Source: Candidatus Saccharimonadales bacterium
Lineage (GTDB): Bacteria; Patescibacteriota; Saccharimonadia; Saccharimonadales; SZUA-47
NCBI GenBank assembly: GCA_041737385.1
Contig: JBGSRU010000002.1
Coordinates: 269,437 to 333,436, forward strand
Direction: 5' to 3'
Length of the DNA: 64,000 nucleotides
Part shown: positions 40,701 through 57,700 of the stretch, piece after piece
Layout of the letters: every line of letters starts with the position of its first letter
How positions within the stretch are numbered: the first letter of the stretch is position 1
The notes under the pieces: generated by a model
Database searches by the model: none
Told to the model about the DNA's origin: nothing
The model's input: only the letters and a program-made list of their open reading frames with translations
Program-made: the position numbers and the translations under genes

Positions 40701-41067
40701 TACAGAAAACAAGACAGTGAACATCGTCGACTTCAAAACGGGCAAGCCACATGACAAATGGGAGCGCAGCGTCAAACTTCTTAAATACAAACAGCAGCTA
40801 TACTTCTACAAATTCTTGATAGAAGGCTCACACACATGGAGTGGGTATAAAGTAGCAGAAGCCCGCCTCGAATTCGTCGAGCCAAACAGTGAAGGCAAGG
40901 TATTGCCGCCGTTAAAGATTGAGTTCAGTGTTGCAGATGTAAAAGAGACAAAAGCGCTGATTCAAGCAGTCTGGAACAGGATCGAAGCTCTTGATCTACC
41001 CGATGTTTCAACATACTCTGACGATTACAAAGGTACGTCAATGTTTATAGAGTCTTTGCTGCTATAG
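37768..41067 (+). CDS. UvrD/PcrA-family helicase fused to a C-terminal PD-(D/E)XK nuclease (AddA/RecB-like)
   Basis: Walker A AGPGTGKTQ, LLDEFQDTN, VGDDDQAIYAFQGA, TAYKAKGLEF and VAITRAK, plus the C-terminal nuclease motif GKIDRLE...IVDFKTGK. TATACT at 37754-37759 lies 8 nt upstream of the ATG. Confidence 0.85.
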   Translation: MKEIKLNAAQQQAVDQIYGPLLVLAGPGTGKTQLLSARIANILEQTDASAQNILCLTFTEKAALNMRERLAGIIKDDAYDVHINTYHGFGSDIIRQYPEYFEEINLETGEDSRLERPIDDLQRIQIITELVNKLPYSSPLIGARHYVKNVASTISELKRGLYTPESLRTLASDNLRQVQELSPKLADYIGIIKSFPRTADKAVELFSGVEDILSDHKGLAEIAHEELEQAIAEAVETQKSKPLTAWKNVWLTKDAQNNYRFTDEQQHLRIAELANLYEKYQQALEASQLYDFDDMILRSIDALKNKDELRFNLQEKYQFILLDEFQDTNAAQFELVKLLADNPINEGQPNIFAVGDDDQAIYAFQGARVSNMLGFINAFRDVKVINLTENYRSHPDLIHTAHNVASQIESRLHYNLEGVNKTLQASASDLPADASIERHEFASEASEYAWVADRIASLIAGGTNPSEIAVLAPKHKLLENIVPFMVANGIPISYEKREDILHTPLMRAFRSMIELVRAAHDGDDIRINELLPRVLSLDFYQIPVADIWKVNWAYRTRDEDRSWVEIALETDSLAPHVMFYLSLGLKAAEEPLEYLLDYLTGSAPLVIDAEISYTSPLKEFYFSDRDSDPLKFYETLANLSTIREHLRAHQTGEVRLLGLQDFLDFIDAHEAADQPLINTHPIAQAQSSVQLMTAYKAKGLEFEHVFLLSVHDDVWGKKARVNSNKLSLPANLQHIRYQGSSEDELRRILFVAITRAKHGLYLSSHANKDNGRSTEAVKYLLEFDDGEARKTTVFPEAKQILRETSFTPAETMQHIDTMWHSRHVTLDADLKSLLSSRLETYQMSPTHLNTFIDMEYGGPEQFLLNTLLRFPKAPGEDGEFGNAVHTTLDWYQKRIGEDSKPELDKVLVEFDKQLSRRYIPADRMDDFRDRGHHALKLYIPASEDTFTRTAKAEVDFKGEGVMLGEAHLAGKIDRLEIDTENKTVNIVDFKTGKPHDKWERSVKLLKYKQQLYFYKFLIEGSHTWSGYKVAEARLEFVEPNSEGKVLPPLKIEFSVADVKETKALIQAVWNRIEALDLPDVSTYSDDYKGTSMFIESLLL

Positions 41068-41964
41068 ATAATACCGTCTGCTGTTCGTATTTCCAGTTGC
41101 CTTAATCCGACCAGCATGTACGAGTTTCTGCAGATAACCTGACGTTAGTTTTTCTGATAGATTAATTTGGTTTGCGATAGAGTGCACGGTCGTTTGCGAG
41201 TTAGCTCTCACTATTTTTTCAATTGCATCCATCATGTCGTTCATATGTGCTTTTCGGTTACTGTTTGATTGTGCCCGTGCGCCTGCAATATGTTCACGTG
41301 CCCACAGTCGACGCGCTGCATCTAGTTCATCGCTGGTTAATGCTAATACTCGTTCCGGCACACCTTCAGTATCTTTATCTACATGTTCAGCAGGCACCGG
41401 AGTTGCTTCTTCTGCTTTTATTTCTTCGACTTTCTTCTCAACCTCAATATCCTTCCTCACTTCTGTCTCCACTTTGGGAGTTACCGGCGCTACAGGTGGT
41501 GTTGTTTCTGGCGCAGTTATTTTTGGCCCCACTACAGGTGGTGTAGACGCTACAGGTGGTGGTGTATCAACTTTTGGTGCTTCGTCCTTTGGTTGCTCAA
41601 CTGCAACAGCCTCTGCAGCTGGTTCTTTCTCAACTATCAAATTTGTATTATCAATTATTCCTGTACCTTCAGATTCCTGTGTTGGAGCAGGGGGAGCTGG
41701 AAGTGGAACTGTTTCCTCAGCAGCTGGTTCATTTTCAAGTATCAAGTTTGAATTATCAATTATTCCTGCATCTTCGGGTTCTTGTGTTGGAGTTGGAGCG
41801 GGAAGTAGAGCTGTTTCCTCAGCAGCTGGTTCTTCCTCAACTATCAAATTTGAGTTATCAATTATTCCTATATTTTCAGGTTCTGTTGCCTCAATTATCA
41901 CCGTATCATTATCAGATATATCCGCTGCTATAGGTTCTTCTGGCATGGCTTGATTATAGCGCAT
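41062..41964 (-). CDS. Acidic, proline-rich repeat protein with a C-terminal winged-helix-like domain
   Basis: Three ~33-aa tandem units (GIIDNSNLIVEEEPAAEET...PAPTPTQ), a P/T/V-rich linker and a C-terminal TVHSIANQINLSEKLTSGYLQKLVHAGRIKATG resembling a wHTH. Confidence 0.5.
   Translation of the reverse strand: MRYNQAMPEEPIAADISDNDTVIIEATEPENIGIIDNSNLIVEEEPAAEETALLPAPTPTQEPEDAGIIDNSNLILENEPAAEETVPLPAPPAPTQESEGTGIIDNTNLIVEKEPAAEAVAVEQPKDEAPKVDTPPPVASTPPVVGPKITAPETTPPVAPVTPKVETEVRKDIEVEKKVEEIKAEEATPVPAEHVDKDTEGVPERVLALTSDELDAARRLWAREHIAGARAQSNSNRKAHMNDMMDAIEKIVRANSQTTVHSIANQINLSEKLTSGYLQKLVHAGRIKATGNTNSRRYYL
41590..41886. repeat. Three in-frame tandem repeats of about 100 bp inside the 41062-41964 gene
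   Basis: ATTATTCCT...TCAACTATCAAATTTG-type units recur three times on the plus strand. They correspond to the GIIDN(S/T)NLI(V/L)E repeats of the protein. Confidence 0.7.
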
Positions 41965-42003
41965 ATGCTAAAAGTGCTTTTTTATTTTTGATTTTAAAAT
42001 TTT

Positions 42004-42308
42004 GTGGGTTACCTCGTCCCACACCCACGACATACTTTCTTGTGTTGACTATAAAGTATGCAAAGAAACAACAGCAGGGCAATATAGCACTATAGAAAAG
42101 CATGCAACTGCTCCAGTTCTTGCGGAACACTAAGGCGGTCAAAAGTGTTACATGTTTTAATTACTTTTGACTGGTCCTCAGAAATGATTCTGAATCAGCT
42201 CCATACTTTTCATCGGTATATCGCCTTTATGCTGGTTTAAAGCAAACTCAGGCATCAATTATCAGACATCAGACATTACTCATACTAGTTATATGCTGGT
42301 TTGGCTGC
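42004..42308. repeat. Structured intergenic repeat, copy A (hairpins H1, H2 and H3 plus two ATGCTGGTTT modules)
   Basis: H1 is GTGGG-N9-CCCAC (42004-42022). H2 is CATACTTT-N14-AAAGTATG (42031-42060). The conserved CAAAGAAACAACAGC follows. H3 is GTCAAAAGT-N16-ACTTTTGAC (42138-42171). ATGCTGGTTT occurs at 42229 and 42293. The copy is homologous along its whole length to 52017-52255. Confidence 0.8.
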
Positions 42309-42415
42309 AAACTGTAAATCTAAAATCAATAATCTAATATCTAATATCTCCATCGTCTATCAAACCATTTGACTGCAACTAGTAACAAGCTTCGATACAG
42401 AGTAAAATAAAATTA

Positions 42416-42829
42416 ATGGCAATTTATAAATCTAAATACAGCAAAATTAAAGCAAGTTCTCACTCTGTATTAATAAAAGAAACTAGAAAACAGTACCACA
42501 CTATTCAGAAAAAGAACCCACGTAGAGTGCCCTACGTTAGGTCTGCATACTTTACAAAGGATAAAATATTTGTAAATCTATTTTGGCCGCATTTACAACA
42601 AAAGACATCAGGAGATCAAGTTAGGCGATTGCAGTTATATGCATGTGCTATTGATTTAATTCGCAATTCAAAAAATACTCCAGAAACAATATTCACCCAC
42701 ACAGACAAAGAACACGCACTGCATCGCTTTGAAGGGTTAAGTGCTGATGGTGCAAAATTCTATGTTCAAATAAGAGAGAATAAACGGACAAACAGAAAAG
42801 ATTTTATGTCTTGTTTCCCTGCAAAATAA
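42416..42829 (+). CDS. Basic hypothetical protein
   Basis: 137 aa, Lys/Arg-rich. The YVQIRENKRTNRKDFMSCFP C-terminus resembles uncharacterised proteins I recall from small-genome bacteria. No functional motif found. Confidence 0.45.
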   Translation: MAIYKSKYSKIKASSHSVLIKETRKQYHTIQKKNPRRVPYVRSAYFTKDKIFVNLFWPHLQQKTSGDQVRRLQLYACAIDLIRNSKNTPETIFTHTDKEHALHRFEGLSADGAKFYVQIRENKRTNRKDFMSCFPAK

Positions 42830-43007
42830 AAAGGCCCTTTGCGCTGGGTAGCCTAGAAACTACGGGCAAAAGGTCTTAAAATTATATTAGCATAAGGGTA
42901 TGCCATATGTCAATTTGTGTAGAGGCAGTTCGGTAGGGTGTAAAAAGGCAGTCGTTCATTTTAAACATGCTTTTGTATAGACGCATCAATTACTATAAAA
43001 TTTGACG

Positions 43008-43562
43008 ATGAGCTCAAGCATAAATAGACTAGAATCTTTATTCGGAGAAGATAGACCACAGTTAGATGTGACCGCAGGATATGAGGATAGGAGTCCTGAT
43101 GGTATTGCTACAGAATTTTTAGCAGGCTTAGATGAGACGGAAAGAGAAGCTATTCAATCGCTAGCCGAAAGGGGACTAAATGATCCTTTATTATTTCCCG
43201 CCCATATTCACGCATTACTTGATGAGCTGGATGGCTATGACCCTAACCGCACTAAAGGTAGTAGCTACTATGCAACTGAAGAACTTAGAAGAATTGAACT
43301 ATGGTTTTCTGTACTGCATAATCGTGGAGCAGTTCCATATTTAAGGACTGAGTTTGACACAAAAACGAGTGTTGATGCCTCAATTACTTTTTGGGATATT
43401 TTAGAAATAGATCAGGTAAATAAACTAGAAGAACTTATGCACCCACCCTTTGAGCTTATAAACAGACACATACAAGATGAGGCTAATCCAAGCAGCAATT
43501 TCATGAAGACGATGTATGCTGTACTGGCACAGAGTATGCTAAGAGATAAAGCACAACAATAG
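43008..43562 (+). CDS. Hypothetical protein
   Basis: Open frame from TTG 43002 or ATG 43008. No recognisable motif. Confidence 0.4.
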   Translation: MSSSINRLESLFGEDRPQLDVTAGYEDRSPDGIATEFLAGLDETEREAIQSLAERGLNDPLLFPAHIHALLDELDGYDPNRTKGSSYYATEELRRIELWFSVLHNRGAVPYLRTEFDTKTSVDASITFWDILEIDQVNKLEELMHPPFELINRHIQDEANPSSNFMKTMYAVLAQSMLRDKAQQ

Positions 43563-43614
43563 ATTAGTAGTTCTTAAAATATCCGCCGTTTAAATTGTGC
43601 ATTATGCGTTGCTT

Positions 43615-44127
43615 TTAAAACAGCATCTTTTCAAGTGCTTTGATATCTCGTTGACGCCATTTATCTTGAGATATTAGGCCTTTATTATTAGCAATAATTG
43701 CTTCTTTTGATAGTAACGGGAGTGTAAAGCCTTCAAACTCGACATTCTCAACTTCAGGGAACCCATCTTTATAATACTTACTAAATACACTAACTTTTGG
43801 GTTATAAACAAGTAGTTCATCCATAGTGCACATATCTAAAACTTGTCCTTCAATATTTAACTCTAAATTATAGTTATTGTAATTCTCATCAACATAGTTA
43901 ATTAAATCTTGCGAAATATGTGGCTTTACATCCTTCAAAAAATTCCTAAACTCTGGGCTGTCTTTTGACGTATCAATGTCTATATCGATATCAGTCAGCA
44001 GCCTATCTACTCCGTATACATAGCATGCAAAACCACCTGTTATAACCCAGTCAAACTTATATATATTTAGTAAGGGGATTATGAAGTTTAAGGCTTTTCG
44101 GGCTTTTTGATTTTCTTTATGTGTCAT
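43615..44127 (-). CDS. Nucleotidyltransferase-fold protein (Lnu/ANT-like)
   Basis: WVITGGFACYVYGVDRLLTDIDIDID matches the GG...G..R...D.D pattern of lincosamide/aminoglycoside nucleotidyltransferase-like enzymes. The start is probably ATG 44127 (MTHKENQ), because the listed 44214 start runs into repeat copy B. Confidence 0.55.
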   Translation of the reverse strand: MTHKENQKARKALNFIIPLLNIYKFDWVITGGFACYVYGVDRLLTDIDIDIDTSKDSPEFRNFLKDVKPHISQDLINYVDENYNNYNLELNIEGQVLDMCTMDELLVYNPKVSVFSKYYKDGFPEVENVEFEGFTLPLLSKEAIIANNKGLISQDKWRQRDIKALEKMLF

Positions 44128-44184
44128 GAGAGGAGTATAGCAAGAATTGGAGTGAAGAACCGGCTGTCTTTTTAGAACCTGTTT

Positions 44185-44338
44185 GTGGGGTACCTCGTCC
44201 CATACTCTCAGCATTGATTCGGAAAATTATTGGACACATCACTCAGTTTTCACGCTTTATGCTGGTTTAAAGCAAACTCAGGCATCAATTATCAGACATC
44301 AGACATTACTCATACCAGTTTTATGCTGGTTTGGCTGC
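44185..44338. repeat. Structured intergenic repeat, copy B (H1 plus the right-hand 86-bp module; H2 and H3 absent)
   Basis: GTGGGGTACCTCGTCCCAT at 44185-44203. Segment 44253-44338 is nearly identical to 42222-42308 and includes both ATGCTGGTTT motifs (44259, 44323). Confidence 0.8.
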
Positions 44339-44352
44339 GAGCAGACAGGATA

Positions 44353-44381
44353 TTGACTTTTAGTACTCTTTGTGTTACTAT
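44353..44381 (+). promoter_or_regulatory. Sigma70-like promoter for the leaderless ORF at 44388
   Basis: TTGACT (44353-44358), a 17-nt spacer, then TACTAT (44376-44381). ATG 44388 lies 6 nt downstream. Confidence 0.55.
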
Positions 44382-44387
44382 ACAATT

Positions 44388-44960
44388 ATGAGTAATTGGG
44401 TACATTTTCCCCTTGACGTTCCGCGCCCTGATATAAACTCGGACTTCAACGAAAAACAAAGGGATGAGCTTGAACTACTTGTAGCACATCAAGTAAGCGG
44501 CTTACTTCGACATTACGGAGAAATAATTGATCAAGGCGTTGACAATTCAGGTTGCCCGGACGTTGACGAACCTCAAACGTTTTACGGTATTGAAGTCGAC
44601 TGCTTCGTTTTTGATGATGACAGCGAGTTACTATTAGGTCAATTTCCGGATAGCCCTGACGGATTCGTCACATCTGCAGGAGCTCATGCAGTACGGAAAT
44701 TGGATGATGATGGTTCGCCTGAATTTTGTATTACTGTCTGGGATCCCGAAGTTGATTCAGCAAATCGAGTACATACTTCCACAGGGGATAAAGTTGAACT
44801 TGCTACGCTAAACGAGCTTTATCATGTATTATTTGTAATAGCATCTGATTTTGCATTTACACACGACGCACCAGAAAATAATGATCCTTCAGAATATCCA
44901 ATACCAGTCGTTGAACCCATAATTGAAACTATGGCACAACAATTTTTAGGTGATGAATAG
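44388..44960 (+). CDS. Highly acidic hypothetical protein
   Basis: 190 aa from ATG 44388 (MSNWVHFPL), rich in Asp and Glu. No motif recognised. Confidence 0.45.
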   Translation: MSNWVHFPLDVPRPDINSDFNEKQRDELELLVAHQVSGLLRHYGEIIDQGVDNSGCPDVDEPQTFYGIEVDCFVFDDDSELLLGQFPDSPDGFVTSAGAHAVRKLDDDGSPEFCITVWDPEVDSANRVHTSTGDKVELATLNELYHVLFVIASDFAFTHDAPENNDPSEYPIPVVEPIIETMAQQFLGDE

Positions 44961-45116
44961 CTAATAACTTTCAACTAGGTCTCATAGACTGATTCAGCGC
45001 AGCAGCGTCACTCGTCACCTCTTTTTGCTGAAAAAGAAACTTGCATTAACCTTAATAAAGATTACGCCGTATTAAAATTATTTGTTTTTGTATAAATTTT
45101 ATTATATAATAATCTT

Positions 45117-45842
45117 ATGAGATCTGACCAACTACCATTCCATCCGTCTTTTGAGCGTACACGTAGAACAGACGAGGGTCACTTGATGTCTTCAGATCGT
45201 TTTCCTGATATAGTGATTAGAGATAGCACATATATCGATCCGAACGAAGACAGAATGTTTCTTGTCAGATCAGGCAATGAACAAATAAAGTTACTAGAGA
45301 CTCTAGGAATACAAACTGTAAACCCTCGACCGATAATTACTGAAACTGGAATTGCACTAGTGGTAGACAGAGTCCAAGGAAACACCCTGGAGGAAGAAAT
45401 AGAATCTGGCAACACAGAGGCAACAACTGAATATGGAAGAACTTTGGTTAAGTTGACTCAGTACTACAAAGGCAGTATAGAAGAACCCGGTACTGCTGTA
45501 CTGGGCGACATCGTTGCCTCATGCCAGTTCACGTGGCAGAATAACGAAGCCGTACTGCATGACATAAGCACCGTAAAAATGGATAAACTAAGCTTCGTTT
45601 TACTTAACAGCTGTCATATCGCTTACGAATTAGCCAGACATCATAAGTCATTTGACGAAGCCACAATAACAGAAATCACGAAAGGTCTTGGTGAAATAAG
45701 TAAATCTTTAGATGATAGTCAAGACATTGACCGTAAATCGAAATTATTCTTAAGCCTGACGCTAGCACTAGTAGAAAGTTCCCGGTCAGATACACTGCAA
45801 CTTCTAGCTGATGCTTACGATGCAGATGTTTTTGAAAATTAA
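45117..45842 (+). CDS. Hypothetical protein (weak kinase-like N-lobe resemblance)
   Basis: 241 aa. TATAAT at 45105-45110 lies 6 nt upstream of the ATG. LVVDRVQGNTLEEE resembles the hinge of APH/choline-kinase folds, but no clear catalytic loop is present. Confidence 0.4.
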   Translation: MRSDQLPFHPSFERTRRTDEGHLMSSDRFPDIVIRDSTYIDPNEDRMFLVRSGNEQIKLLETLGIQTVNPRPIITETGIALVVDRVQGNTLEEEIESGNTEATTEYGRTLVKLTQYYKGSIEEPGTAVLGDIVASCQFTWQNNEAVLHDISTVKMDKLSFVLLNSCHIAYELARHHKSFDEATITEITKGLGEISKSLDDSQDIDRKSKLFLSLTLALVESSRSDTLQLLADAYDADVFEN

Positions 45843-46191
45843 AAACATCTATTCCTGTCAACTATCCGCCTATACCGAATTCTTAATAGAATAGATACCA
45901 AAATAATCGCAGCGGGATAAAAAAGCAGGGTAAACTCATAGTCTATTTTTGCTTAAGTCAAGAACGCTTTGGCGTCCAGCAAACAATTCTTACGTTGTGT
46001 GTTTCTGGATTAGCTTTCTGCTTGACTCAAAAATAAACTATAAGCCTTCTCTGACTCCTCCTCATTATGCTGGTTTAGCTGCAGAGATATTAAAAAACTA
46101 ACAACTATAAATTTATAATGGTTAAATTAATAATCTGTAATAATTGCCATCCGTAAAAGGTCAGAATTTCATTTTTATTTTTTTAAATTGA

Positions 46192-47664
46192 TTATTTATT
46201 CCTATTATTTAATTTTATTGTTTGTGTAACACCAATAGCTTTGAAGAAAAATTCATCATGTGATGAAATCAGCATAGCGCCTTTATATTTTTCTAAAGCC
46301 TGTTCGATGTTTTCTCTTGTTGGTATGTCTAAGTGATTTGTCGGTTCATCTAAGATCAACAAGTCATTTTTAGCAAGTAGTAACTTTGCGAAACTTAGCT
46401 TAGACTGTTGGCCACGAGATAATTCACTTGGGTATTTTTTCAAATCTGTTCCACCCATGCCGAGTGCGCGCGCCTCACGGTAAATGTCTGTTATGTCCGC
46501 ATCGGAGTCAAGCAAGTTATCTAACGCAGTTTTAGAGGTATCAATTCCGTCGACATCTTGTGACAGATATCCAATAGAAATATTTTCTCCGACAGTAACT
46601 TTACCACTTGTTGGACTAATTTCACCTAATGCTATCTTTAGTAGAGTAGATTTACCGCTACCGTTCTTGCCATTTATCCTAAATCGATCATTGCCCCGCA
46701 CTTCAAAAGACAGGTTGCTAAAAAGTTTTTTACTGAACTCCATCGAAACATCTTCCACGCTCAATACAAGTTTGTGCAAATGTGCTCCGCCATCAATAGC
46801 TATTTTATAGCTTCTTTTGTTCTCTGGTTTATCGAGCTCACTAATTTGCTTCAAACGCGATTCCATAGAACGTACTTGCTGTCCATACTGCCTAGTTACA
46901 CGGTTCTTGAAATAGTCCCGTTGAGCCTTGTCATTATCCGTGCGCTTGATGTGTTTATGAGTGTGCAGTTCTAATTCACGACGCTGTCTAAGAGCACTCT
47001 CTACCCGTCTACGTTCTTCGATGCTTGCTTCGTACGCTTCTTCTGCGTGGAGACTTTCAAGGTCCTTTTGTTGCCTATAGTTATCATAGTTTCCGCTATA
47101 GACTTTCAGGATTCCTGATTTAAGATCTAATATCTTAGATGCAGATTTATTAATGAAGTTACGATCATGGCTTATTATCACTACTGAGCCCTTAAAATGT
47201 TTTACATATTTTTCTAACCACACTAGGCCTTCCGCATCAAGGTTATTGGTAGGCTCATCTAGTAGTAGTACGTTAGGTTTAGGCTGTTTTGCTAGAACTA
47301 TAGCTATAGCAAGACGAGTTTTCTCACCACCGCTTAAAAGCTTCGTGTTAAAATCCATTGGTTTTTTTAAGCCAACGTCTTGCAACGCTAAATCAATTCG
47401 CCATTGTTCAGTATCGTCATCAAAGCACTGATTAATAGCCGTTCCAAAATCCTCTTGCTGTGGTACATAACCAGCAGCTGCACTCGGAACCTCGACTTTT
47501 CCATTATCGGGCTTGATTTTACTTAGCAGAATCTTTAACAGCGTCGTTTTGCCAGCTCCATTTTCACCAATAAGAGCAATAACCTCGTTGTGAAGCGTGA
47601 GGTTTATATCTTTAAGGACTTCTTTAGCCCCAAAGGATTTACTAATATTTATGAGTTTATACAT
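46192..47664 (-). CDS. ABC-F family ATPase (two ABC cassettes, no TM domain), ARE/translation-factor type
   Basis: Walker A GENGAGKTT and GKNGSGKST, signatures LSGGEKTR and LSRGQQSK, and Walker B LLLDEPTNNLD and LILDEPTNHLD. A charged interdomain linker is present. The start is ATG 47664 with a GGAGA RBS. Confidence 0.85.
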   Translation of the reverse strand: MYKLINISKSFGAKEVLKDINLTLHNEVIALIGENGAGKTTLLKILLSKIKPDNGKVEVPSAAAGYVPQQEDFGTAINQCFDDDTEQWRIDLALQDVGLKKPMDFNTKLLSGGEKTRLAIAIVLAKQPKPNVLLLDEPTNNLDAEGLVWLEKYVKHFKGSVVIISHDRNFINKSASKILDLKSGILKVYSGNYDNYRQQKDLESLHAEEAYEASIEERRRVESALRQRRELELHTHKHIKRTDNDKAQRDYFKNRVTRQYGQQVRSMESRLKQISELDKPENKRSYKIAIDGGAHLHKLVLSVEDVSMEFSKKLFSNLSFEVRGNDRFRINGKNGSGKSTLLKIALGEISPTSGKVTVGENISIGYLSQDVDGIDTSKTALDNLLDSDADITDIYREARALGMGGTDLKKYPSELSRGQQSKLSFAKLLLAKNDLLILDEPTNHLDIPTRENIEQALEKYKGAMLISSHDEFFFKAIGVTQTIKLNNRNK

Positions 47665-47676
47665 ATTTTCTCCAAA

Positions 47677-47723
47677 CAAAAAACCGAGCACGTTGTTGAC
47701 TAGTAGTCACACGAATGCTCGGT
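47677..47723 (-). terminator. Leader terminator (attenuator) immediately upstream of the ABC-F RBS
   Basis: The minus strand reads ACCGAGCA-N25-TGCTCGGT followed by TTTTTT, and ends 7 nt before the GGAGA of the ABC-F gene. Confidence 0.65.
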
Positions 47724-47785
47724 ACTTTTAGATAGAGTTAACTGATATAACAATCAATAGCAAAGTCTGCACGAATTCGTGTGAT

Positions 47786-47809
47786 CTAGCTGTTGATTGT
47801 GTCTATCAT
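47786..47809 (-). CDS. 7-codon upstream ORF (MIDTINS) in the ABC-F leader
   Basis: ATGATAGACACAATCAACAGCTAG on the minus strand, preceded by AAGGAG. The stop is followed directly by ATCACACGAAT, which is complementary to ATTCGTGTGA inside the terminator loop. Confidence 0.5.
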   Translation of the reverse strand: MIDTINS

Positions 47810-47836
47810 TTGTATAAAAACTCCTTATTTGTATAG

Positions 47837-47865
47837 ATATTACCATAAACAAGAAGGTTGGTCAA
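47837..47865 (-). promoter_or_regulatory. Sigma70-like promoter of the ABC-F leader
   Basis: The minus strand reads TTGACC, a 17-nt spacer, then TAATAT. Confidence 0.55.
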
Positions 47866-47922
47866 CAATATTGCTTGTGTTTTTCAATCTGCCAGCCCTC
47901 AAGAGAAACTCAGCTGTTGATA

Positions 47923-48861
47923 TCAACTAATCTGCTCGTTAAACTTATCCACCAATTCTGTTACGTGTGACCATTCCTTCATGAGATTCATGGTATCTAG
48001 TAAGATATATGCTTTTATCCTATCTTTAAGCAAGGGATGTTTGAACATTTCAGGGTAGTACTTTTCATACCAACTGCGGAGGTTTTTGTAGTCTTCAGGC
48101 ATAGCAAACTTTTCGTTTTCTTCAGTAGCGTACTTCTTTGGGTCGTCCATGAGCTTCGTTACTACAAATAGAGGATAGTCTACAGCACAGACATCAACAC
48201 TCTCTAGATCAATGAGAGCTTTAAGCTTAAAATTATCATCAACAATAATATTGTCGAAATGTACGTCCCAGAAAACAGGGCACATTTTATCCGTCTTGAG
48301 GGCGTCTAGATACTTACTAAACGTATTCTTTAGCGCAGAATCCTGAGCCTGAGCGATTATATTCTTATCAAGTAGTTCTCTGGCCATATCCTCAAGTCTT
48401 GTTTGCAGGTAAATGTGCCAGGGCTGGTCTTGCTCGCTAGGCAAAAACTCGACGCTAATCTTGTTAATTTTTCTTAAAATAGTTGATAGGTCTTTGACGA
48501 TGGCTTCTCTTTGAGCGTCGGTTGCAAGATGCCATACATGCCCTAAAACAGGGCCGTCTACGAACGCCATGAATATGTAATGTCTTCTATCGTCCGTCTC
48601 TCCTTCGGCAACAAAAGATGGTCTTGCAAAATCTATATCCGAGCTAAGTATCGCACGTTCAGTTTGGTACCGCTTATTACCATCTTCAGACTTATAGATT
48701 TTAAGTACCAGGTCATCATTAATTTTATAGACCTCGTTCATAAAGCCTATTGTTATTCGTGAATGAGTAAAATACTCTATGTCATTTAGTTCGCATAGTT
48801 GCTTGATCTGGTCTGTGCTGAACGTTGATTCTGGATTCATTACGCTAAATATCTTCCACAC
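47923..48861 (-). CDS. Aminoglycoside/macrolide phosphotransferase-like kinase (APH/ChoK fold)
   Basis: Catalytic-loop-like FWDVHFDNIIV (D-x4-N) followed by ALIDLES (the DFG equivalent), in a protein of about 300 aa. Confidence 0.65.
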   Translation of the reverse strand: MWKIFSVMNPESTFSTDQIKQLCELNDIEYFTHSRITIGFMNEVYKINDDLVLKIYKSEDGNKRYQTERAILSSDIDFARPSFVAEGETDDRRHYIFMAFVDGPVLGHVWHLATDAQREAIVKDLSTILRKINKISVEFLPSEQDQPWHIYLQTRLEDMARELLDKNIIAQAQDSALKNTFSKYLDALKTDKMCPVFWDVHFDNIIVDDNFKLKALIDLESVDVCAVDYPLFVVTKLMDDPKKYATEENEKFAMPEDYKNLRSWYEKYYPEMFKHPLLKDRIKAYILLDTMNLMKEWSHVTELVDKFNEQIS

Positions 48862-48905
48862 ATATGGTTAGCTTATTTATCTGGCCTTCAAGTTTTTCGA
48901 TTGTG

Positions 48906-49460
48906 CTATTCACTGATCAACTCCTTAATACGCTGTGTACCCTCGTTAATAGGCTGTGTCCCGTCAATAACCATATCTGCGTACTCTTTTGGCGCATCTC
49001 GAACTAAATATTTATCTTCATTTTCAAACCACTGATCCCACATAGCTACAATTTCTTCATCTGACTTGCCTTCATTTCCTTTATCCCTAGCAAGTCCGCG
49101 CTCCAGACAAATTTCTTTTGGCGTATCTACATACACCCCAAAGTCTATATACTCACGAAGCTCTTTGCGCAGTGCCGATACGCCCTCTAGAATCATGATC
49201 TCGGTAACTGGCTGATCAACAACAGGTTCTGGTTTGTGGTCTGCCCACCATTTTGACCTTGGATAACTTAATTTTGTTGCGCCTTGCCTGACCGGCTCAA
49301 GAACCCGTTCAATCACAAGTGGCCACCAATTGATAGGATTATAAAAGGACGCGAAATCATCAGTATGAATAATCTCTGCGCCCAGCTCTTTAGCTAATTC
49401 TTGGGCAAGAGTAGATTTACCAGATCCACCATGTCCGTCTATTGCTATGAACTTAGTCAT
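48906..49460 (-). CDS. P-loop nucleoside/nucleotide kinase-like protein
   Basis: IAIDGHGGSGKSTLAQELAKELG Walker A at the N-terminus, with the size and layout of uridine-kinase/NMP-kinase-like proteins. Confidence 0.6.
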   Translation of the reverse strand: MTKFIAIDGHGGSGKSTLAQELAKELGAEIIHTDDFASFYNPINWWPLVIERVLEPVRQGATKLSYPRSKWWADHKPEPVVDQPVTEIMILEGVSALRKELREYIDFGVYVDTPKEICLERGLARDKGNEGKSDEEIVAMWDQWFENEDKYLVRDAPKEYADMVIDGTQPINEGTQRIKELISE

Positions 49461-50046
49461 TCCTTAAATCATTCCAATTCGTTCTAGGCAATAATGCCTC
49501 TGATCCATTTCTACAAAGCACACATTCGTCAGGAGAATACTTACTGGTCTTCATGGATGCAGCCGATAGTATTCTACGGCGATTGAGCGTTTCTTGACCG
49601 GTCATATTTGCAAGACAGTATACGAGATCGACTACTTTGATGCCCTTTGACTCTAATTCCTGAATTGTAGCTAAGGCAGCACCTCCGCCGTACATATCAT
49701 CTGCGACCACAAGTGCCGTTGATCCATCAGGAATACTGAATGTTGTCACGTATTTTTCTGATGGCAGAGTGTACGCAAACTTAGCACCTAAGAGCTTCGC
49801 TGCTTCAAAAGCGATAGGAATGCTGTAGGGAGCATAGCCAACAATATAATCAATATTGTCTGAGAGTTCAGGCAATAAAGTTGATTTGATAATTTCAGAT
49901 ATAAGCTGCGGTTCTTGAGTTATCACATCCGAATTAAAGTATGCATCTACATACTTGCCAGACATGGATGTTTTGACGTGAGGACCAACTCCACCGTAGC
50001 ACCAAAACGCTCCTTTTTCTTCAAGAACTTTTTTCCAATTAGTCAT
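49453..50046 (-). CDS. Phosphoribosyltransferase (orotate-PRT-like)
   Basis: PRPP motif ALVVADDMYGGGAA and the upstream IVGYAPYSIPIA pattern. An 8-nt overlap couples it to the downstream kinase gene. Confidence 0.6.
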   Translation of the reverse strand: MTNWKKVLEEKGAFWCYGGVGPHVKTSMSGKYVDAYFNSDVITQEPQLISEIIKSTLLPELSDNIDYIVGYAPYSIPIAFEAAKLLGAKFAYTLPSEKYVTTFSIPDGSTALVVADDMYGGGAALATIQELESKGIKVVDLVYCLANMTGQETLNRRRILSAASMKTSKYSPDECVLCRNGSEALLPRTNWNDLRND

Positions 50047-50449
50047 TTTTTCGTCTTTCTTGCTATGGATTATGACACAAAGAACAATCTGAGTACATTA
50101 CGGCTTGTTTGGCACACAAGAATAATTGTTAGACTGTAGAGTTAAATCACTTCACCTTTGTTATTCGCTTCATGCTGGATTAACTAATTTATTGACTATT
50201 TTTCTAAAGTTAAAATATTTTAGCTTCATTAGAGTATAATAAACTCGGCGATATAGTCACTTTCATAAATTTAGACTATAGGCTTTTAACTCAAGCAATC
50301 ACACTTCGGTCACTGTGCGCTTGCAATCCATATTTAGTTTCCCAGTATTGGCTATCGTGAGTAACGGCTCTTACATAGTTTTAGCTCGGTAACTACTAAA
50401 CCAAAACCCGTTATATATCACTTAATATCTCTTTTAGGTTTAGTTTAAT

Positions 50450-50734
50450 ATGGATCCAACTCAAGTAATAAATCAGCGTGTTGAAGTGGCTGTCTTTTAC
50501 AGAAAAGATTGCGACATTAGTATGTTGGCGTACCCGGTTAAAATGAAATATAAAAACCAAGAAATACTTTTTACTCGTTTAGGTCTCAGGCACGAAACAG
50601 CTAAAGGCAAAAGAATGATTCACGTGTTTGATATGTCAGATGGTGTAAATGATTATAGATTAGAATTTGATGCACAAGGCTTAACCTGGACACTCGTTGC
50701 GATTATCCCGGGCGTCTATGAGGCAGGGAAATGA
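50450..50734 (+). CDS. 94-aa hypothetical protein translationally coupled to the Y-family polymerase
   Basis: Its stop overlaps the polymerase start (ATGA, 50731-50734). It shows no S24 peptidase (UmuD) or YolD motif. Confidence 0.5.
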   Translation: MDPTQVINQRVEVAVFYRKDCDISMLAYPVKMKYKNQEILFTRLGLRHETAKGKRMIHVFDMSDGVNDYRLEFDAQGLTWTLVAIIPGVYEAGK

Positions 50735-51987
50735 ACTACGATTTAAACCAAGACGAACCAAGAATAATGTGGGTAGATTTGAATAGTGCATTTGCAATGG
50801 CAGAACAGCAAGCCCATCCATCACTGCGCAACAAACCACTAGGCGTGACGAACAGACTGTCAAAAGAATGCTGCGTCATTGCAGCCTCATATGAAGCGAA
50901 GGCTCTTGGAATAAAGGTGGGGGTTAGACGCTCCGAAGCGAAAGCACTCTGTCCCGACTTCATCATGCTAGAGACTGATCCACCAAAATACCATCACGTA
51001 TACAAAAAACTAGCGGCAATAATGAAAAGTTACTGTCCAGATGTAAAGATGAAAAGTATAGATGAAGGAATTATGGACTTTAGAAAGATGGACAAAACTT
51101 ACACAACAGAGCGCCTGATTGCTATCGGCTACGAAATGAAAGAGCGCGTCAAAACTGAAATTGGAGACTATATAAAAATAAACGTAGGAATCGCGCCTAA
51201 TAGATTCTTGGCTAAAACAGCAGCCGGTTTGCACAAGCCGGACGGGCTTGACGTCATAGACCATAGGAACCTAATAAAAGTCTACAGGTCGTTAGAACTA
51301 CAAGATTTAAACGGCATAGCTGATGGCTATGGAAGCAGGTTAAGATCGTTTGGCATTGCAACACCAATGCATTTTCTTAATGCTCGTGAAGACCTACTCC
51401 GCAAACAAGTTTTCAAAAGTATAAACGGAATGCACTGGTATAAGAGACTTAGGGGCTATGAAGTGGACGACTACGAAACCAACATAAGCATGGTTGGCCG
51501 TCAGTGGGTAGTGAAGAGTCCAAGCAACAACGAAGACTACCTGCGTTCATGTCTGCATTTCCTAGCTGAAACAACTGGCATGAAACTACGTTACAGAAAT
51601 GTCGAAGCTAGAGGCGTTGCAGTCTGGCTGGCCTTCCAGTCTGGGGAAGTATTCTCAGACAAAAAAATGTACAAAACTGGAGTTTTTACTAACGAAGATA
51701 TTTGGCTTCGTGTATCGAAAATATTTAACAACCGCCCCAAGCATATGGTGGTCAGAACCATGGGGCTATATTTATATAAACTTGAACCGTCTAGTCGCAG
51801 TCAAATTGGCTTATTTCACAATACTGAAAAATCACAATACATTACCGAGGCAATGGATGAGATAAACGATTTCTATGGTTCATTCACCGTGTTTTCAGGC
51901 GACTCACTTGAAGGAACCAAGCACGTGAAACAGAAAATTCCATTCGGCGGTACAGAGTATTTCGATTTATTATTAAAGAGACAATAA
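50731..51987 (+). CDS. Y-family DNA polymerase (UmuC-like translesion polymerase)
   Basis: MWVDLNSAFAMAEQQ...LRNKPLGV resembles the UmuC N-terminus (D-x-N-x-F-Y-A-S-x-E). The catalytic SIDEG motif is retained, and little-finger-size C-terminal domains are present. Confidence 0.8.
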   Translation: MNYDLNQDEPRIMWVDLNSAFAMAEQQAHPSLRNKPLGVTNRLSKECCVIAASYEAKALGIKVGVRRSEAKALCPDFIMLETDPPKYHHVYKKLAAIMKSYCPDVKMKSIDEGIMDFRKMDKTYTTERLIAIGYEMKERVKTEIGDYIKINVGIAPNRFLAKTAAGLHKPDGLDVIDHRNLIKVYRSLELQDLNGIADGYGSRLRSFGIATPMHFLNAREDLLRKQVFKSINGMHWYKRLRGYEVDDYETNISMVGRQWVVKSPSNNEDYLRSCLHFLAETTGMKLRYRNVEARGVAVWLAFQSGEVFSDKKMYKTGVFTNEDIWLRVSKIFNNRPKHMVVRTMGLYLYKLEPSSRSQIGLFHNTEKSQYITEAMDEINDFYGSFTVFSGDSLEGTKHVKQKIPFGGTEYFDLLLKRQ

Positions 51988-51993
51988 TTTATT

Positions 51994-52255
51994 GTGGCTT
52001 TTCGCGCCACACTAAAGTGGGTTACTTCGTCCCACACCCTCGACATACTTTCTTGTGTTTACTAGAAAGTATGCAAAGAAACAACAGCGGGCGATAAAAG
52101 CGCGACACACTCAAAACAACTTTGCACTGTGCCTGCGGGACTCCCGTTGGTCGGTCAAAAATGTTTCTTGAAGTTACATATTTTTGACTTGTCCTCGGCA
52201 ATGACTCAGCGCGAAGTTGCTCCAAGTGATCGGTTTTACCGCTTCATGCTGACTC
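51994..52255. repeat. Structured intergenic repeat, copy C (H0, H1, H2, H3 and one ATGCTG module)
   Basis: H0 is GTGGC-N7-GCCAC (51994-52010). H1 is GTGGG-N9-CCCAC (52017-52035). H2 is CATACTTTC-N12-GAAAGTATG (52044-52073). H3 is GTCAAAAAT-N17-ATTTTTGAC (52154-52188). ATGCTG occurs at 52246. Confidence 0.8.
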
Positions 52256-52284
52256 AATACAAGCTTGAGAAGTATTGACAGATG

Positions 52285-52293
52285 TGATATAAT
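52285..52293 (+). promoter_or_regulatory. Extended -10 promoter (TGaTATAAT) for the leader transcript
   Basis: TGATATAAT at 52285-52293, with ATG 52301 lying 7 nt downstream. The nearby TTGACA (52275-52280) is only 7 nt away and so is not a functional -35. Confidence 0.5.
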
Positions 52294-52300
52294 ATATCTA

Positions 52301-52399
52301 ATGAATAAAATCAGTATTTCAGTTTCAACAGAACACCTTTTGCAGCAAGCTGCGGTATTTTTTGGTTTTATCTCTTTTATCCAGGCGGTAGCTCCTTAG
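52301..52399 (+). CDS. Candidate 32-aa Phe-rich leader peptide (MNKISISVSTEHLLQQAAVFFGFISFIQAVAP)
   Basis: Leaderless ATG. Four TTT Phe codons fall within seven codons (52358-52378), and the ORF end overlaps the antiterminator segment GGCGGTAGC (52384-52392). Confidence 0.45.
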   Translation: MNKISISVSTEHLLQQAAVFFGFISFIQAVAP

Positions 52400-52431
52400 A
52401 ACGTATTAAACGACCATAAATAATTACAAAA

Positions 52432-52457
52432 GCGACCGCCAGAAAGCGGTCGTTTTT
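52432..52457 (+). terminator. Leader terminator of the PheRS-like operon (attenuator)
   Basis: CGACCGC-cagaaa-GCGGTCG followed by TTTTT, 14 nt upstream of the GGAGA RBS of the 52485 ORF. Its 5' arm is complementary to 52384-52392. Confidence 0.6.
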
Positions 52458-52484
52458 AATTAAATATTAATTGGAGAAATTACT

Positions 52485-52676
52485 ATGAGTGAAATACAAA
52501 AATATATTGGAGAAGAGTTAGATAAACCAGAAACCCTAAGCAAACAGTTAGATAAACAAGATGATGGGCTTGAAGTTGAAGCCAGTGTAGCGCCTGTAAC
52601 CGAACTTGGAGCTGGTGAAATAATAGCCTTATCACTAGATGATATTGTTCCGCGTAGCTGGAAAAGCTGGGAATAG
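52485..52676 (+). CDS. 63-aa acidic protein, function unknown
   Basis: The GGAGA RBS lies 8 nt upstream, and the stop lies 2 nt before the next start. It is very acidic and has a C-terminal ALSLDDIVPRSWKSWE. Confidence 0.5.
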   Translation: MSEIQKYIGEELDKPETLSKQLDKQDDGLEVEASVAPVTELGAGEIIALSLDDIVPRSWKSWE

Positions 52677-52678
52677 TC

Positions 52679-53818
52679 ATGAAAATGAATATTAAGCCAC
52701 TAACAAAGGCTCAGGCAGATTACTACCTGAGCCTCCCAGATCTTACAAAAGAAGAGAGCAATCATGCGGTTGGCTTGCTGTACAGAAAAATCAAAAAGAA
52801 AATAGAATCAACACATCCAGATAGTGAAATTATGATCTATCGGGATAATCAGATCATTTCTATTGAAGATAACTATGAAAACTTGCTGATTCCAAAATAC
52901 AATATTAGTCGTTCATCTACCTACACACATTATGTAGATGGGGGTACGTTGCTACGAACTCACGCATCATCAGCAATACCTGGCGCTATGCGTGAGCTTG
53001 CAAAACGCAGCGACTGGAATGACGTCGTGATTCTCGTTCCAGGACTCGTATACAGGCGTGATGTGGCAGATAAGAAACATGTCGGACAGATTCACATGCT
53101 AGATGTTTGGCGTGTTGTAAGAACAGCCGGCAGGCCAGAAGTTACTCACGATACACTTCTAGGTGCAGTTAAAGATATAGCAGCAACAGCTGCACCTGGG
53201 TGGATGCTACGCATTGAGGATTCACCTCATCCATACACTGACGGCGGCATTGAGGTTAATGCCGTCAACAAAGATGATGGACGAGATATAGAAATACTAG
53301 AGTGTGGACTCATCAAAAAAGAAGTCTTAAAAATCAATGGCCTAGACCCACGGGTCTATTCAGGATGGGCGCTCGGTATGGGGCTCGACAGACTCGTTAT
53401 GACGCTGAAGGATTTACCAGATATACGTTATTTGCGTTCAGGTAACCCTAAAATAGCTAAACAAATGCTAAACCTTAATACGTATTTGGAAGTGTCTAGT
53501 CAGCCTGCAATACAGCGCGATATGTCCTATTCAGTACCTGAAAGTTACGTTGAAGAGGATATATCTCAAGACATAATGTCTGCAATGGGTGATGATATAG
53601 CAGCTCTTGAAGAAGTAGAGATATTAAACGAAACCAGCTACGAAGACTTGCCGGATACAGCACGTAAAAATCTTGGCATACAATCAGACCAAAAGAATGT
53701 GCTAGTTCGTGTGACGTTGAGGCATCTAGAAAAAACGCTAACTAGTAAAGAGGCCAACATAATCTATGACAATATCTACCCACAAATTAACTACGGGGCA
53801 GCGGGGTACGCATCATGA
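52679..53818 (+). CDS. Single-chain PheRS-like class II aminoacyl-tRNA synthetase homolog (alpha-type catalytic core plus a C-terminal FDX-ACB-like domain)
   Basis: LLRTHASSAIPG aligns with LLRTHTS. Motif 2 is GLVYRRDVADKKHVGQIHMLDV. Motif 3 is GWALGMGLDRLVMTLKDLPDIRYL. The C-terminal PAIQRDMSYSVP...VLVRVTLRHLEKTLTSKEANIIY resembles the ferredoxin-fold anticodon-binding domain. Confidence 0.7.
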   Translation: MKMNIKPLTKAQADYYLSLPDLTKEESNHAVGLLYRKIKKKIESTHPDSEIMIYRDNQIISIEDNYENLLIPKYNISRSSTYTHYVDGGTLLRTHASSAIPGAMRELAKRSDWNDVVILVPGLVYRRDVADKKHVGQIHMLDVWRVVRTAGRPEVTHDTLLGAVKDIAATAAPGWMLRIEDSPHPYTDGGIEVNAVNKDDGRDIEILECGLIKKEVLKINGLDPRVYSGWALGMGLDRLVMTLKDLPDIRYLRSGNPKIAKQMLNLNTYLEVSSQPAIQRDMSYSVPESYVEEDISQDIMSAMGDDIAALEEVEILNETSYEDLPDTARKNLGIQSDQKNVLVRVTLRHLEKTLTSKEANIIYDNIYPQINYGAAGYAS

Positions 53819-53863
53819 TTATTTCGACAACATCAACTAACTTATATTTGATAGACTAAACAT

Positions 53864-54883
53864 ATGAAACAAGAAAAAATTATCAGAACAGTTTGTGTAT
53901 TTACAAAAGAACCCAATGATTCGTCCATTGATAGATTAGACTTAATTGTTCAAAAACTCGAGCAAAACGGCTATATTGTGCAAACAAAACGAGTCGCATC
54001 GACAGTTGATTATCTTAATGAGCTTGTTGCGCTTACGCAGAAAGGCATTGAATACGTGAGTGTTGGCGATGTAACTACTGAACAAGCACTAGAAATACTG
54101 CCTACTTTCTATGAAAACAAGGCACTTACATTCAATATAGAGCTAGCAAAAGAAGAAATATCTCAGAAGCATGTAGATATACTCCACAAAATCATAGAAA
54201 ACAACGCTTCGAAAACATTTAGCTTCACCTATACCTTCAACAACGCAGCTTCCAGCCCATATTTTCCATCTGCTCGCTTCGTAGAAGATGGTTTTGCCAT
54301 AGGACTGCAGCCAACCGATCTGTCTGTCGGCTGTGATACGCTCGAAGAATGGCTAGAAAACATGCATAAAACATGGCAAGAGATTACCGATCTATTTGCC
54401 AACGAACCAGATTTTCTAGGTATTGATAGTTCTATAGCCCCGCTACTTGACGGAAATAGCAGTTTTATAAACTTCATAAAACGGCTTGGGCTTACATTCG
54501 AACAAACAGTAACTACGGATATGTACACGACAATAACGAAGTTTCTAAAAGAACAGAACCCTAAGCCTATAGGTCTATGCGGCATGATGCTCCCGTGTTT
54601 AGAGGATTTTGAATTAACTACAGAATACGAGGCAGGAAACTTTTCTATTGAAAGAAATGTTTTCTTGTCATTACATTCAGGGCTAGGTATAGATACCTAT
54701 CCCATTGGCGTCGATGAAAAGCCAGAGCGTGTAATAGAAATACTAAAGCTAATCCAGTCGCTGTCAAATAAGTACAATAAGCCACTTTCTGCTCGTTTTG
54801 TTTCAGACGGCAAAGCTAAAATCGGTGAAAAATCTGATTTTCAAAATCCTTATCTCAAAGATTGCGTGATTCGTCCGCTTTAG
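53864..54883 (+). CDS. DUF711 / UPF0210-family-like protein (shortened, 339 aa)
   Basis: Collinear similarity, judged from memory, to UPF0210 proteins. The matching segments are IIRTVCVF, QTKRVA, SSPYFPSARF, LGIDSSIAPL, GLCGMMLPCLED and GLGIDTYPIGVDEKPERV. Confidence 0.55.
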   Translation: MKQEKIIRTVCVFTKEPNDSSIDRLDLIVQKLEQNGYIVQTKRVASTVDYLNELVALTQKGIEYVSVGDVTTEQALEILPTFYENKALTFNIELAKEEISQKHVDILHKIIENNASKTFSFTYTFNNAASSPYFPSARFVEDGFAIGLQPTDLSVGCDTLEEWLENMHKTWQEITDLFANEPDFLGIDSSIAPLLDGNSSFINFIKRLGLTFEQTVTTDMYTTITKFLKEQNPKPIGLCGMMLPCLEDFELTTEYEAGNFSIERNVFLSLHSGLGIDTYPIGVDEKPERVIEILKLIQSLSNKYNKPLSARFVSDGKAKIGEKSDFQNPYLKDCVIRPL

Positions 54884-57699: not shown

Positions 57700-57700
57700 C

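Follow-up and report, generated by a model that had tools for sequence, protein, structure and literature searches.

A pseudoknotted, non-coding repeat element with a conserved 3' core lies at the junctions between accessory gene cassettes in a Candidatus Saccharimonadales genome

The subject of this work is a repeat element in a 64,000-nucleotide (nt) stretch of contig JBGSRU010000002.1 of a Candidatus Saccharimonadales bacterium (positions 269,437 to 333,436, forward strand), referred to below as the window, in whose coordinates all positions are given. A first-pass annotation of this DNA had drawn attention to the short motif ATGCTGGTTT and described it as a portable module just upstream of promoters. 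We find that this motif is the 3'-terminal core of a non-coding, multi-copy and highly structured repeat element of about 240-250 nt. This core, with the consensus YTTYATGCTGGTTTRGCTRC, is made up of the 3' strand of P3, the closing helix, and a short tail. In at least six phyla the element occurs in intergenic DNA, and it contains no gene; its behaviour is therefore that of a non-autonomous repeat resembling REPINs or miniature inverted-repeat transposable elements (MITEs). The reading that we favour, with a probability of roughly 45%, is that its 3' core serves as the joining site at the borders of gene cassettes, and that recombination between copies also produced a conspicuous 84-nt repeat in the window.

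The recurring segment noted in the first-pass annotation is indeed a direct repeat (42225-42308 and 44255-44338; 84 nt with two mismatches, 98% identity, spacing 2030 base pairs (bp)), for which the earlier bounds of 42222-42308 and 44253-44338 were slightly too generous. The exact motif ATGCTGGTTT was also found where it had been reported, at 42229, 42293, 44259, 44323 and 46067, always on the + strand and spanning 3.9 kilobases (kb). These five occurrences compare with 0.24 expected, and five were reached in 0 of 100 shuffles; a longer form, TTATGCTGGTTTRGCTGC, occurs three times as compared to 0.09 expected. The variants ATGCTGGATT at 50172 and ATGCTGACTC at 52246 are present as described. 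Two things had escaped the earlier annotation, namely that the motif is the end of a far larger conserved unit and that a divergent copy exists at 55052-55291, in which the motif reads ATGCCGATTG. A recent segmental duplication combined with chance similarity, without any function, could account for the 84-nt repeat, as simple duplication or unequal crossover would suffice to place two 98% identical segments 2030 bp apart, and a 2029-nt Logan unitig from this region would be a mere repeat-bounded assembly piece. Given the five exact motif copies and the recurrence of core and architecture, with compensatory changes, in 104 genome stretches of several phyla, this explanation is hardly credible. 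The Logan contig itself had been considered as a possible excised circle. It corresponds to window positions 42256-44284 and, because both of its ends fall inside the repeat, it was rejected as an assembly break. A match to GCAAAGAAGCGAC at 22541 was likewise dismissed as chance because it lies inside a gene and is not accompanied by the hairpin P2 described below.

The extent of the element became apparent from the intergenic regions 41965-42415 and 51988-52490, which hold copies A and E and align over about 250 nt, from the hairpin GTGGGTTACYTCGTCCCAC at the start to the bases CGCYTYATGCTG at the end. Identity between copies is mosaic: A and E are 94% identical in the first 72 nt and much less similar in the remainder, and A and B are 98% identical in the last 84 nt. 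Single-sequence folds of 28 copies share a common plan of a first hairpin P1, a second hairpin P2, a linker and an arm of about 150 nt that is closed by P3. P1 varies in sequence, and its region often contains UUCG. P2 is a near-invariant hairpin of 12 bp that hardly varies in its upper seven pairs and in its loop, with a base-paired GTAG at its foot in many copies, and the linker that follows it is the A-rich GCAAAGAA. The fold z-scores against shuffled sequence are -2.35 for copy A and -3.41 for copy E on the + strand. Alignments of the arm with MAFFT were poor. A minus-strand coding reading of the P1 hairpin, with an MSWVWDEVTH-like start in A, B and E, was rejected because other families have a covarying hairpin of different sequence at this place.

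Base-pair covariation supports P2, a pseudoknot and P3. The P2 pairs that had been left free by our search pattern covary (CCUAC/GUAGG, CAUAC/GUAUG, CUUAC/GUAAG and CCUCC/GGAGG), with CG in 17, UA in 13 and AU in 12 cases at pair 3-30. Four bases of the P2 loop pair with four bases just 3' of the linker and form an H-type pseudoknot whose strands change together (GUCG/CGAC, GUUG/CAAC, GUCA/UGAC, GUAA/UUAC and GUGG/CCAC); for pair 17-41 the counts are CG 24, UA 13, AU 1 and GC 1. When 47 distinct sequences were aligned without gaps, 93.1% of all cells were paired as compared to 85.1% in shuffles, and the covariation score was reached by 0 of 500 shuffles. As a control, the partner columns were slid against each other, upon which pairing amounted to only 37-60%. 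The two strands of P3 also change in step between families (CAGGC/GCCUG, CAGCA/UGCUG as in the window, CGGCC/GGCCG, CCCCC/GGGGG, CGUGGC/GCCACG and CCACGC/GCGUGG). A complement of at least 5 nt to the P3 5' strand is found in the 3' region of the same copy in 73% of cases; when the 3' region is taken from a copy whose 5' strand differs, the figure is 23%. Thus, the ATGCTG of the earlier annotation is the 3' strand of P3. In copy A, CAGCA (42072-42076) pairs with UGCUG (42230-42234) and the preceding GCCU pairs with GGGC over a three-base bulge; copy E has the compensating pair of strands CGCUU/GGGCG. Furthermore, the register of the A-rich linker matches the purine strand of P2, which, as far as the sequence can tell, would be compatible with a triple helix.

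No catalogued RNA family matched the element. With Rfam 15 at curated gathering thresholds, scans of the window and of 16+8 loci yielded no family overlapping the element; only tRNA and one SAM riboswitch were found, both elsewhere. With relaxed limits (E <= 5 for 41.9-55.6 kb of the window, E <= 2 for eight loci), the element was overlapped by chance hairpin matches only. A description of the element was not found in the literature, searched by exact sequence and by topic.

The strength of the covariation, including that of the pseudoknot, raises the question whether each copy is a gene for, or a part of, a functional structured RNA that serves the cell. Such an RNA might stabilise transcript ends, insulate the cassettes from one another or be one of a family of trans-acting small RNAs spreading in the manner of a 'cuckoo' RNA, in which case the border position would be a by-product and the short solo cores described below would be debris. 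Besides fold z-scores of -2.4 to -5.1 and the putative triple helix, the retention of the element at orthologous loci across Pelomonas species would fit such a role, and so would the distribution of UUCG, which is present in 58 of 94 distinct P1 regions and in 6 of 94 for the reverse complement and favours the + strand. However, the evidence on the acting strand conflicts. In 23 of 31 copies the reverse complement gives the more stable fold, copy E reaches a fold z-score of -5.05 on the - strand versus -3.41 on the + strand, and single helix mismatches in the window subfamily are A.C in seven cases and G.U in one, all of which favours the - strand; other subfamilies lean towards the + strand. 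Moreover, no consistent promoter or terminator surrounds the element, its orientation shows no preference relative to the neighbouring genes, and the sharp edges and similar lengths of solo cores in three independent places are unlike decay by point mutation. We therefore regard a functional RNA as a serious if rather unlikely explanation.

The distribution of the element was assessed by searching one genome per species with the pattern TTTCTTGTGTNNACNANAAANNANGCAAAGAA, which represents the shared P2/linker part. The P2/linker core was found in 104 genome stretches from at least six phyla. Carriers include Candidatus Saccharibacteria and other Patescibacteria, the Burkholderiales genera Pelomonas, Roseateles and Rhizobacter, Gastranaerophilales, Campylobacterota, Nitrospinota and a Faecousia genome, many of whose copies are located at the ends of contigs; slightly altered copies are present on the Ralstonia GMI1000 megaplasmid and on Comamonas and Variovorax replicons. 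Viral contigs scanned with the same pattern gave 0 matches. Metagenome matches to TATGCTGGTTTRGCTRC are chance matches in coding DNA, and none has P2 nearby among the matches listed. A recurrent neighbouring protein family was not detected across the 104 loci, the sole cluster being generic ABC ATPases of ordinary operons, and no recurrent transposase-like open reading frame (ORF) was seen in 8-kb loci around the copies. At the loci of the Candidate Phyla Radiation (CPR), the element has no preferred orientation relative to neighbouring genes.

In Pelomonas and Roseateles the element resides at orthologous loci across species, is conserved about as well as the flanking genes and shows internal deletions. 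There, an inverted-pair unit of about 570 nt is found at orthologous loci with 83-92% identity (L031, L070, L090, L091 and L095; L011, L023, L048 and L088). Deletions of 115-330 nt in these units remove the hairpin tips or half of the pair, as is expected of unstable palindromes. The Faecousia version (L008, L025 and L065) measures about 470 nt. About 130-200 nt upstream of its P2, and sometimes again after the unit, stands a GTAG-tagged hairpin, CGTAGGGCAAGCTGCCCYCAGCTTGCC, that resembles repetitive extragenic palindromic (REP) sequences.

From 42 to 55 kb of the window, one copy, relic or core of the element is located at each junction between accessory gene cassettes (Table 1). The tally comprises the intact copies A, E and F, the damaged copies B, C and D, and two solo 3' cores of about 20 nt, A2 and B2; all eight lie on the + strand within 13 kb. 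The cassettes are, in order, the group of a 137-amino-acid (aa) ORF; ORFs of 190 and 241 aa; an operon of ABC-F, phosphotransferase, kinase and phosphoribosyltransferase-like genes; a 94-aa ORF with a Y-family polymerase; a small ORF with a paralogue resembling phenylalanyl-tRNA synthetase (PheRS) and a DUF711 gene; and a type III restriction-modification system. The guanine-cytosine (GC) content is about 0.43-0.45 up to 42 kb and 0.36-0.41 thereafter. The drop coincides exactly with copy A, which is the first intact element and marks the border between core-like and accessory DNA.

The 84-nt repeat can be understood from these copies. The sequence 42239-42291, which follows copy A, is homologous to that after copy E and to that after the closest Saccharibacteria copy, L104, which reads ...ATGCTGGTTTAGCTTCAAAGCTCAGTAGC. 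The 53 nt between A and A2 are therefore the native flank of A/E-type elements, and the 'double motif' of the first-pass annotation is an intact element followed by a solo core of another subfamily. Solo core A2 directly precedes the cassette that opens with the 137-aa ORF (42416-42829). This whole joint of element end, flank and solo core is repeated 2030 bp further on, where 44255-44268 and 44269-44338 together make up the second copy. An internal deletion has removed P2 and the pseudoknot from copy B, along with the 5' half of the arm. Copy C still has the 5' strand of P3, GCAGCGGG, and the 3' core TTATGCTGGTTTAGCTGC (46065-46082); its arm is of the type found on contig L124 (72% identity to L124 12971-13140 by BLAST). 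Of the 5' part of copy D, scraps were recognised by eye, namely the P2 5' arm TCTTTCTTG (50053-50061) and the linker CACAAAGAACAATC (50076-50089). Copy F belongs to the subfamily of the Saccharibacteria copy L012 and carries compensatory changes in P2 (CTTCATTTCT/AGAAACGAAG).

Table 1. Copies, relics and solo cores of the element in the window, with neighbouring promoter-like sites.
Feature	Position	Strand	Parts and remarks
Copy A, intact	42001-42238	+	Homologous to E over about 250 nt; fold shows P1, P2 and P3
Copy A, 5' parts		+	P1 42004-42022; P2 42031-42060; linker GCAAAGAA 42060-42067; pseudoknot 3' strand CAAC 42069-42072
Copy A, P3		+	5' strand CAGCAGGGC 42072-42080; 3' strand GCCTTTATGCTG 42223-42234
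Native 3' flank of A/E-type element	42239-42291	+	53 nt; separates the end of A from A2
Solo core A2	42292-42308	+	TATGCTGGTTTGGCTGC; without element body upstream
Copy B, internally deleted	44182-44268	+	Keeps P1 (44185-44203) and last ~55 nt including CGCTTTATGCTGGTTT
Second 53-nt flank with solo core B2	44269-44338	+	Flank 44269-44321; B2 44322-44338
Copy C, 5' end decayed	45885-46082	+	P1 and P2 lost; linker degenerate
Copy D, decayed and shortened	50050-50187	+	3' core CGCTTCATGCTGGATTAACTAA (50166-50187)
Copy E, intact	52014-52262	+	P1 52017-52035; P2 52044-52073; linker 52073-52080
Copy E, P3		+	5' strand CAGCGGGCG 52085-52093; 3' strand CGCTTCATGCTG 52240-52251
Copy F, intact, divergent subfamily	55052-55291	+	P1 55055-55071; P2 55082-55111; linker 55111-55118
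Copy F, 3' parts			Pseudoknot 3' strand CGAC 55120-55123; P3 CGGC 55123-55126 with GCCG 55279-55282; tail ATTGACTGC to 55291
Promoter-like site after B2	44353-44381	+	TTGACT-17-TACTAT with TG; 30 nt after B2, 7 nt before ATG at 44388
Promoter-like site after C	46090-46119	+	
Promoter-like site after D	50192-50221	+	
Promoter-like site after E	52265-52293	+	

A related arrangement is present on the metagenomic contig L124, which encodes a homologue of the 137-aa protein with 88% identity. It contains two full copies of the element, one copy truncated within P2 at the 5' side and two solo cores, all in the same orientation. One of the full copies is situated directly upstream of the gene of the 137-aa family and ends in a single TTTATGCTGGTTTGGCTGC. 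The cassettes of L124 encode Fic, S66 peptidase, EndoU, CdiA-C and NUDIX proteins; the genes called beside the elements are those of Fic, NUDIX and SACS/NOV_C proteins. When ten copies and relics were aligned, columns with at least 90% conservation fell only in the 3' core. In the window, on L124 (7181-7594) and on a Parcubacteria contig (L037, from about 3113, some 147 nt past the 3' end of the element), the gene of the 137-aa family stands after the end of an element. A further location is L116 4001-4423; besides the three genomes, a CPR contig carries the gene flanked by dprA and a comM-like gene, beside recA. The family comprises 77 clusters without a Pfam domain, mostly from CPR bacteria and one Campylobacterales genome. 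A general link between this family and the element was considered and rejected, as homologues elsewhere have no element nearby.

The conservation of the core is also what would be expected if the accessory operons were co-regulated through these about 20 nt, either as the binding site of a common transcription regulator or as an upstream promoter element, with the rest of the element being incidental. The core is the best conserved part and persists without its pairing partner in A2, B2, D and the copies d and e of L124. The TTGAC boxes that had been pointed out at 44353, 50192 and 52275 are present, as is the one at about 42371, and at B2, C, D and E promoter-like sites begin 19-30 nt past the motif. 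Over the whole region, promoter-like hits occur at chance frequency (40 vs 39.9). Downstream of 11 motif copies from the window and L124, a perfect TATAAT was found at a distance of 40-62 nt in 3 of 11 cases (background 1-3%), and -10-like hexamers with at least five of six matches in 6 of 11 (background 14-15%). The description as a portable promoter-proximal module therefore stands in so far as the motif recurs between unrelated accessory operons, upstream of promoter-like sequences above chance. It does not stand as a short operator-like module, since in an element of about 250 nt that is common to several phyla the motif forms the 3' strand of a helix whose pairs covary.

The claim of a shared regulator fares less well. 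The distance from the motif to the -10 hexamer varies from 42 to 62 nt, a spread of about 20 nt without helical phasing, which is atypical for an activator or repressor site and unlike a sigma-70 promoter with fixed operator or activator spacing. Copy C of the window and copy b of L124 face convergent genes and thus have no co-oriented gene downstream. In other subfamilies the core sequence differs, for example GCCUGA or GCCGA. The two regulators proposed as candidates were the winged helix-turn-helix-like protein at 41062-41964 and the XRE protein at 61619; nothing ties either of them to the motif, and the L124 genes beside the elements do not encode a helix-turn-helix regulator like the former. 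A regulator site thus appears quite unlikely. Nevertheless, the persistence of the core where the rest of the element is lost makes a sequence-specific role of the core itself probable. The promoters found 20-30 nt past the core would belong to the cassettes and not to the element, because neither the promoter sequence nor the sequence in between is conserved between copies.

According to the reading that we favour, the element would fold as a single strand, either RNA or single-stranded DNA, and would depend on a factor encoded elsewhere. Its 3' core would be the place where DNA is broken and joined as cassettes, each consisting of a promoter and genes, are added, lost or exchanged, and recombination between copies would have given rise to the mosaic identities and to the 84-nt repeat. 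This fits the position of the element at the cassette junctions and two features of its edges: in several copies the flank changes directly past GCTRC, and the solo cores have sharp 5' edges at almost one position in three independent places.

Several observations weigh against a joining site. Neither Pfam scans of 29 ORFs from the surroundings of the array (31.5-63.2 kb) nor gene calls from the 10 kb that follow the right end of the window revealed a recombinase, transposase, TnpB or reverse transcriptase. With no such enzyme nearby and no protein co-occurring in the 104 loci, the mechanism of joining is one that we infer throughout. Neither an empty site nor an alternative junction was observed, look-ups of exact proteins having all returned one sample. 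The conservation of the A/E subfamily runs about 20-35 nt beyond the core, so that the 3' edge is not equally sharp in every subfamily. The strand signals conflict, whether taken from the energy of folding, from the counts of G.U and A.C or from loop motifs. In the Burkholderiales, the element forms a stable inverted pair inside ordinary operons and does not mark a cassette border. Finally, two more copies lie just past the window on the opposite strand, so that co-orientation is not absolute. The latter (L248 11685-11984 and 12614-12913, equivalent to window positions 64455-64754 and 65384-65683) include one with a perfect core, CTTTATGCTGGTTTGGCTGC; the array continues and its orientation flips.

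The layout invites comparison with integron attC arrays, including those that lack an integrase, and with islands at tRNA or tmRNA genes. If the element were the attachment site of a recombinase encoded elsewhere, cassettes would integrate at its 3' end and leave direct repeats of the core. As in attC arrays, structured sites that fold as single strands stand at every cassette border, co-oriented in the window and on L124; a short conserved core at the 3' edge is combined with a variable body, and the small cassettes carry toxin, immunity or resistance-type genes. The GTT of the core stands within GTTTRGC, which is one mismatch away from the integron core GTTRRRY. In favour of an island-like site, an intact copy is found at the GC border of the core genome with short 3' fragments repeated downstream. 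However, the hallmarks of attC (GTTRRRY with RYYYAAC) are absent: the core has T at position 4, there is no RYYYAAC partner at the 5' side and there are no R''/R' boxes. Whereas attC sites are imperfect hairpins of 57-141 nt with extrahelical bases, the element measures about 240 nt and has P1, a P2 pseudoknot and a branched arm. IntI, or any other integrase, was not found among the 29 scanned ORFs or within 10 kb beyond the right end, though one may be encoded elsewhere in the genome; the same scans gave no support to the recombinase site considered in the first-pass annotation. Unlike in integron arrays, the cassettes have their own promoters, and the element is also scattered through core and housekeeping operons of other phyla. 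Against an island-like site, the array itself contains several full copies. ARAGORN detected tRNA-Gln at 33318-33392 and nothing else. An attachment site of this kind is accordingly distinctly improbable. A bolder version of the joining-site reading, which we consider doubtful, is that the gene-less element with its invariant pseudoknotted core, found from Saccharibacteria to Burkholderiales, Bacillota and Campylobacterota, provides in its 3' core a specific breakage-and-joining site for cassette assembly and thus an integron-like system without attC or IntI, possibly driven by an undescribed RNA-guided, ribozyme-like or single-strand-DNA mechanism.

Among known repeats, the element resembles REP, BIME and REPIN sequences, which depend on RAYT proteins of the Y1 HUH type, in being intergenic, multi-copy, hairpin-based, gene-less and dependent on a factor elsewhere. 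The inverted pairs in Burkholderiales, the vertical persistence at orthologous loci and the GTAG at the foot of P2 are further traits of this kind. In contrast to REP sequences, which are lineage-specific and 20-40 nt long, the unit spans 240-570 nt, contains a pseudoknot and a long arm, and has a near-invariant 32-nt core across phyla. Moreover, GTAG is unpaired in REP and base-paired in the element, and no RAYT gene was seen near any copy in the 8-kb loci. Like Correia/NEMIS and ERIC repeats and other MITEs, the element is a small non-coding repeat beside promoters that is able to reshape the expression of its neighbours. However, terminal inverted repeats or a target-site duplication were not recognised at its edges, with no empty site for comparison, and its promoter-like sequences are not conserved between copies; the Burkholderiales units are long inverted pairs, the CPR copies single and asymmetric. 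With the omega RNAs of TnpB and IscB and the IS110 bridge RNA, it shares a length of about 150-250 nt, a pseudoknot-containing scaffold and one end that abuts flanking DNA, and non-autonomous copies are conceivable as for other RNAs from insertion-sequence ends. No TnpB, IscB or IS110 gene lies beside any of about 100 copies, though. Unlike in IS200/IS605 omega RNAs or PATEs, P1 and P2 are found at one end only in the CPR copies, and there is no Rfam match of the HEARO or IS605 type. In contrast to a guide RNA, the sequence past the 3' end is partly conserved within subfamilies.

If the architecture holds, this uncatalogued structured element would rank, in its phylogenetic spread, among the most widely distributed non-coding repeats known from bacteria, with roughly 25 fixed core bases common to phyla that share almost no other non-coding sequence. 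Such conservation implies a conserved partner or chemistry. As the element marks the borders of toxin, immunity, resistance-like and restriction cassettes in Saccharibacteria, it could explain how genes are shuffled in reduced genomes without obvious mobile-element machinery. It would also be of use as an annotation marker for variable regions, and it offers RNA biology a testable fold with a pseudoknot and a possible triple helix.

Some observations concern the genes around the array. The cassette at 52265-54883 is unusual in that its strong promoter-like site is followed by a leader of about 190 nt with two terminator-like hairpins (52340-52355 and 52433-52452), a 63-aa acidic ORF (52485-52676), the PheRS-alpha-like paralogue with an FDX-ACB domain (52679-53818) and the DUF711 protein (53864-54883). 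A 34-aa ORF on the minus strand at 54880-54984 adjoins copy F. This stretch of about 100 nt is 82% identical to L124 11093-11203, where a 35-aa ORF is called, and could represent a conserved small protein or RNA. The 300-aa protein encoded on the minus strand at 41062-41964 has an acidic, proline-rich N-terminal part, a weak DUF7342 match at its C-terminus and three tandem coding repeats of about 105 nt (41588-41884). At the other end of the array, a defence-type cluster at 55471-63187 comprises a type III methylase (55471-57699), a Res helicase (57701-60391), a HEPN protein (60391-60969), an XRE-SocA/Panacea fusion (61619-62395) and a GIY-YIG protein (62771-63187).

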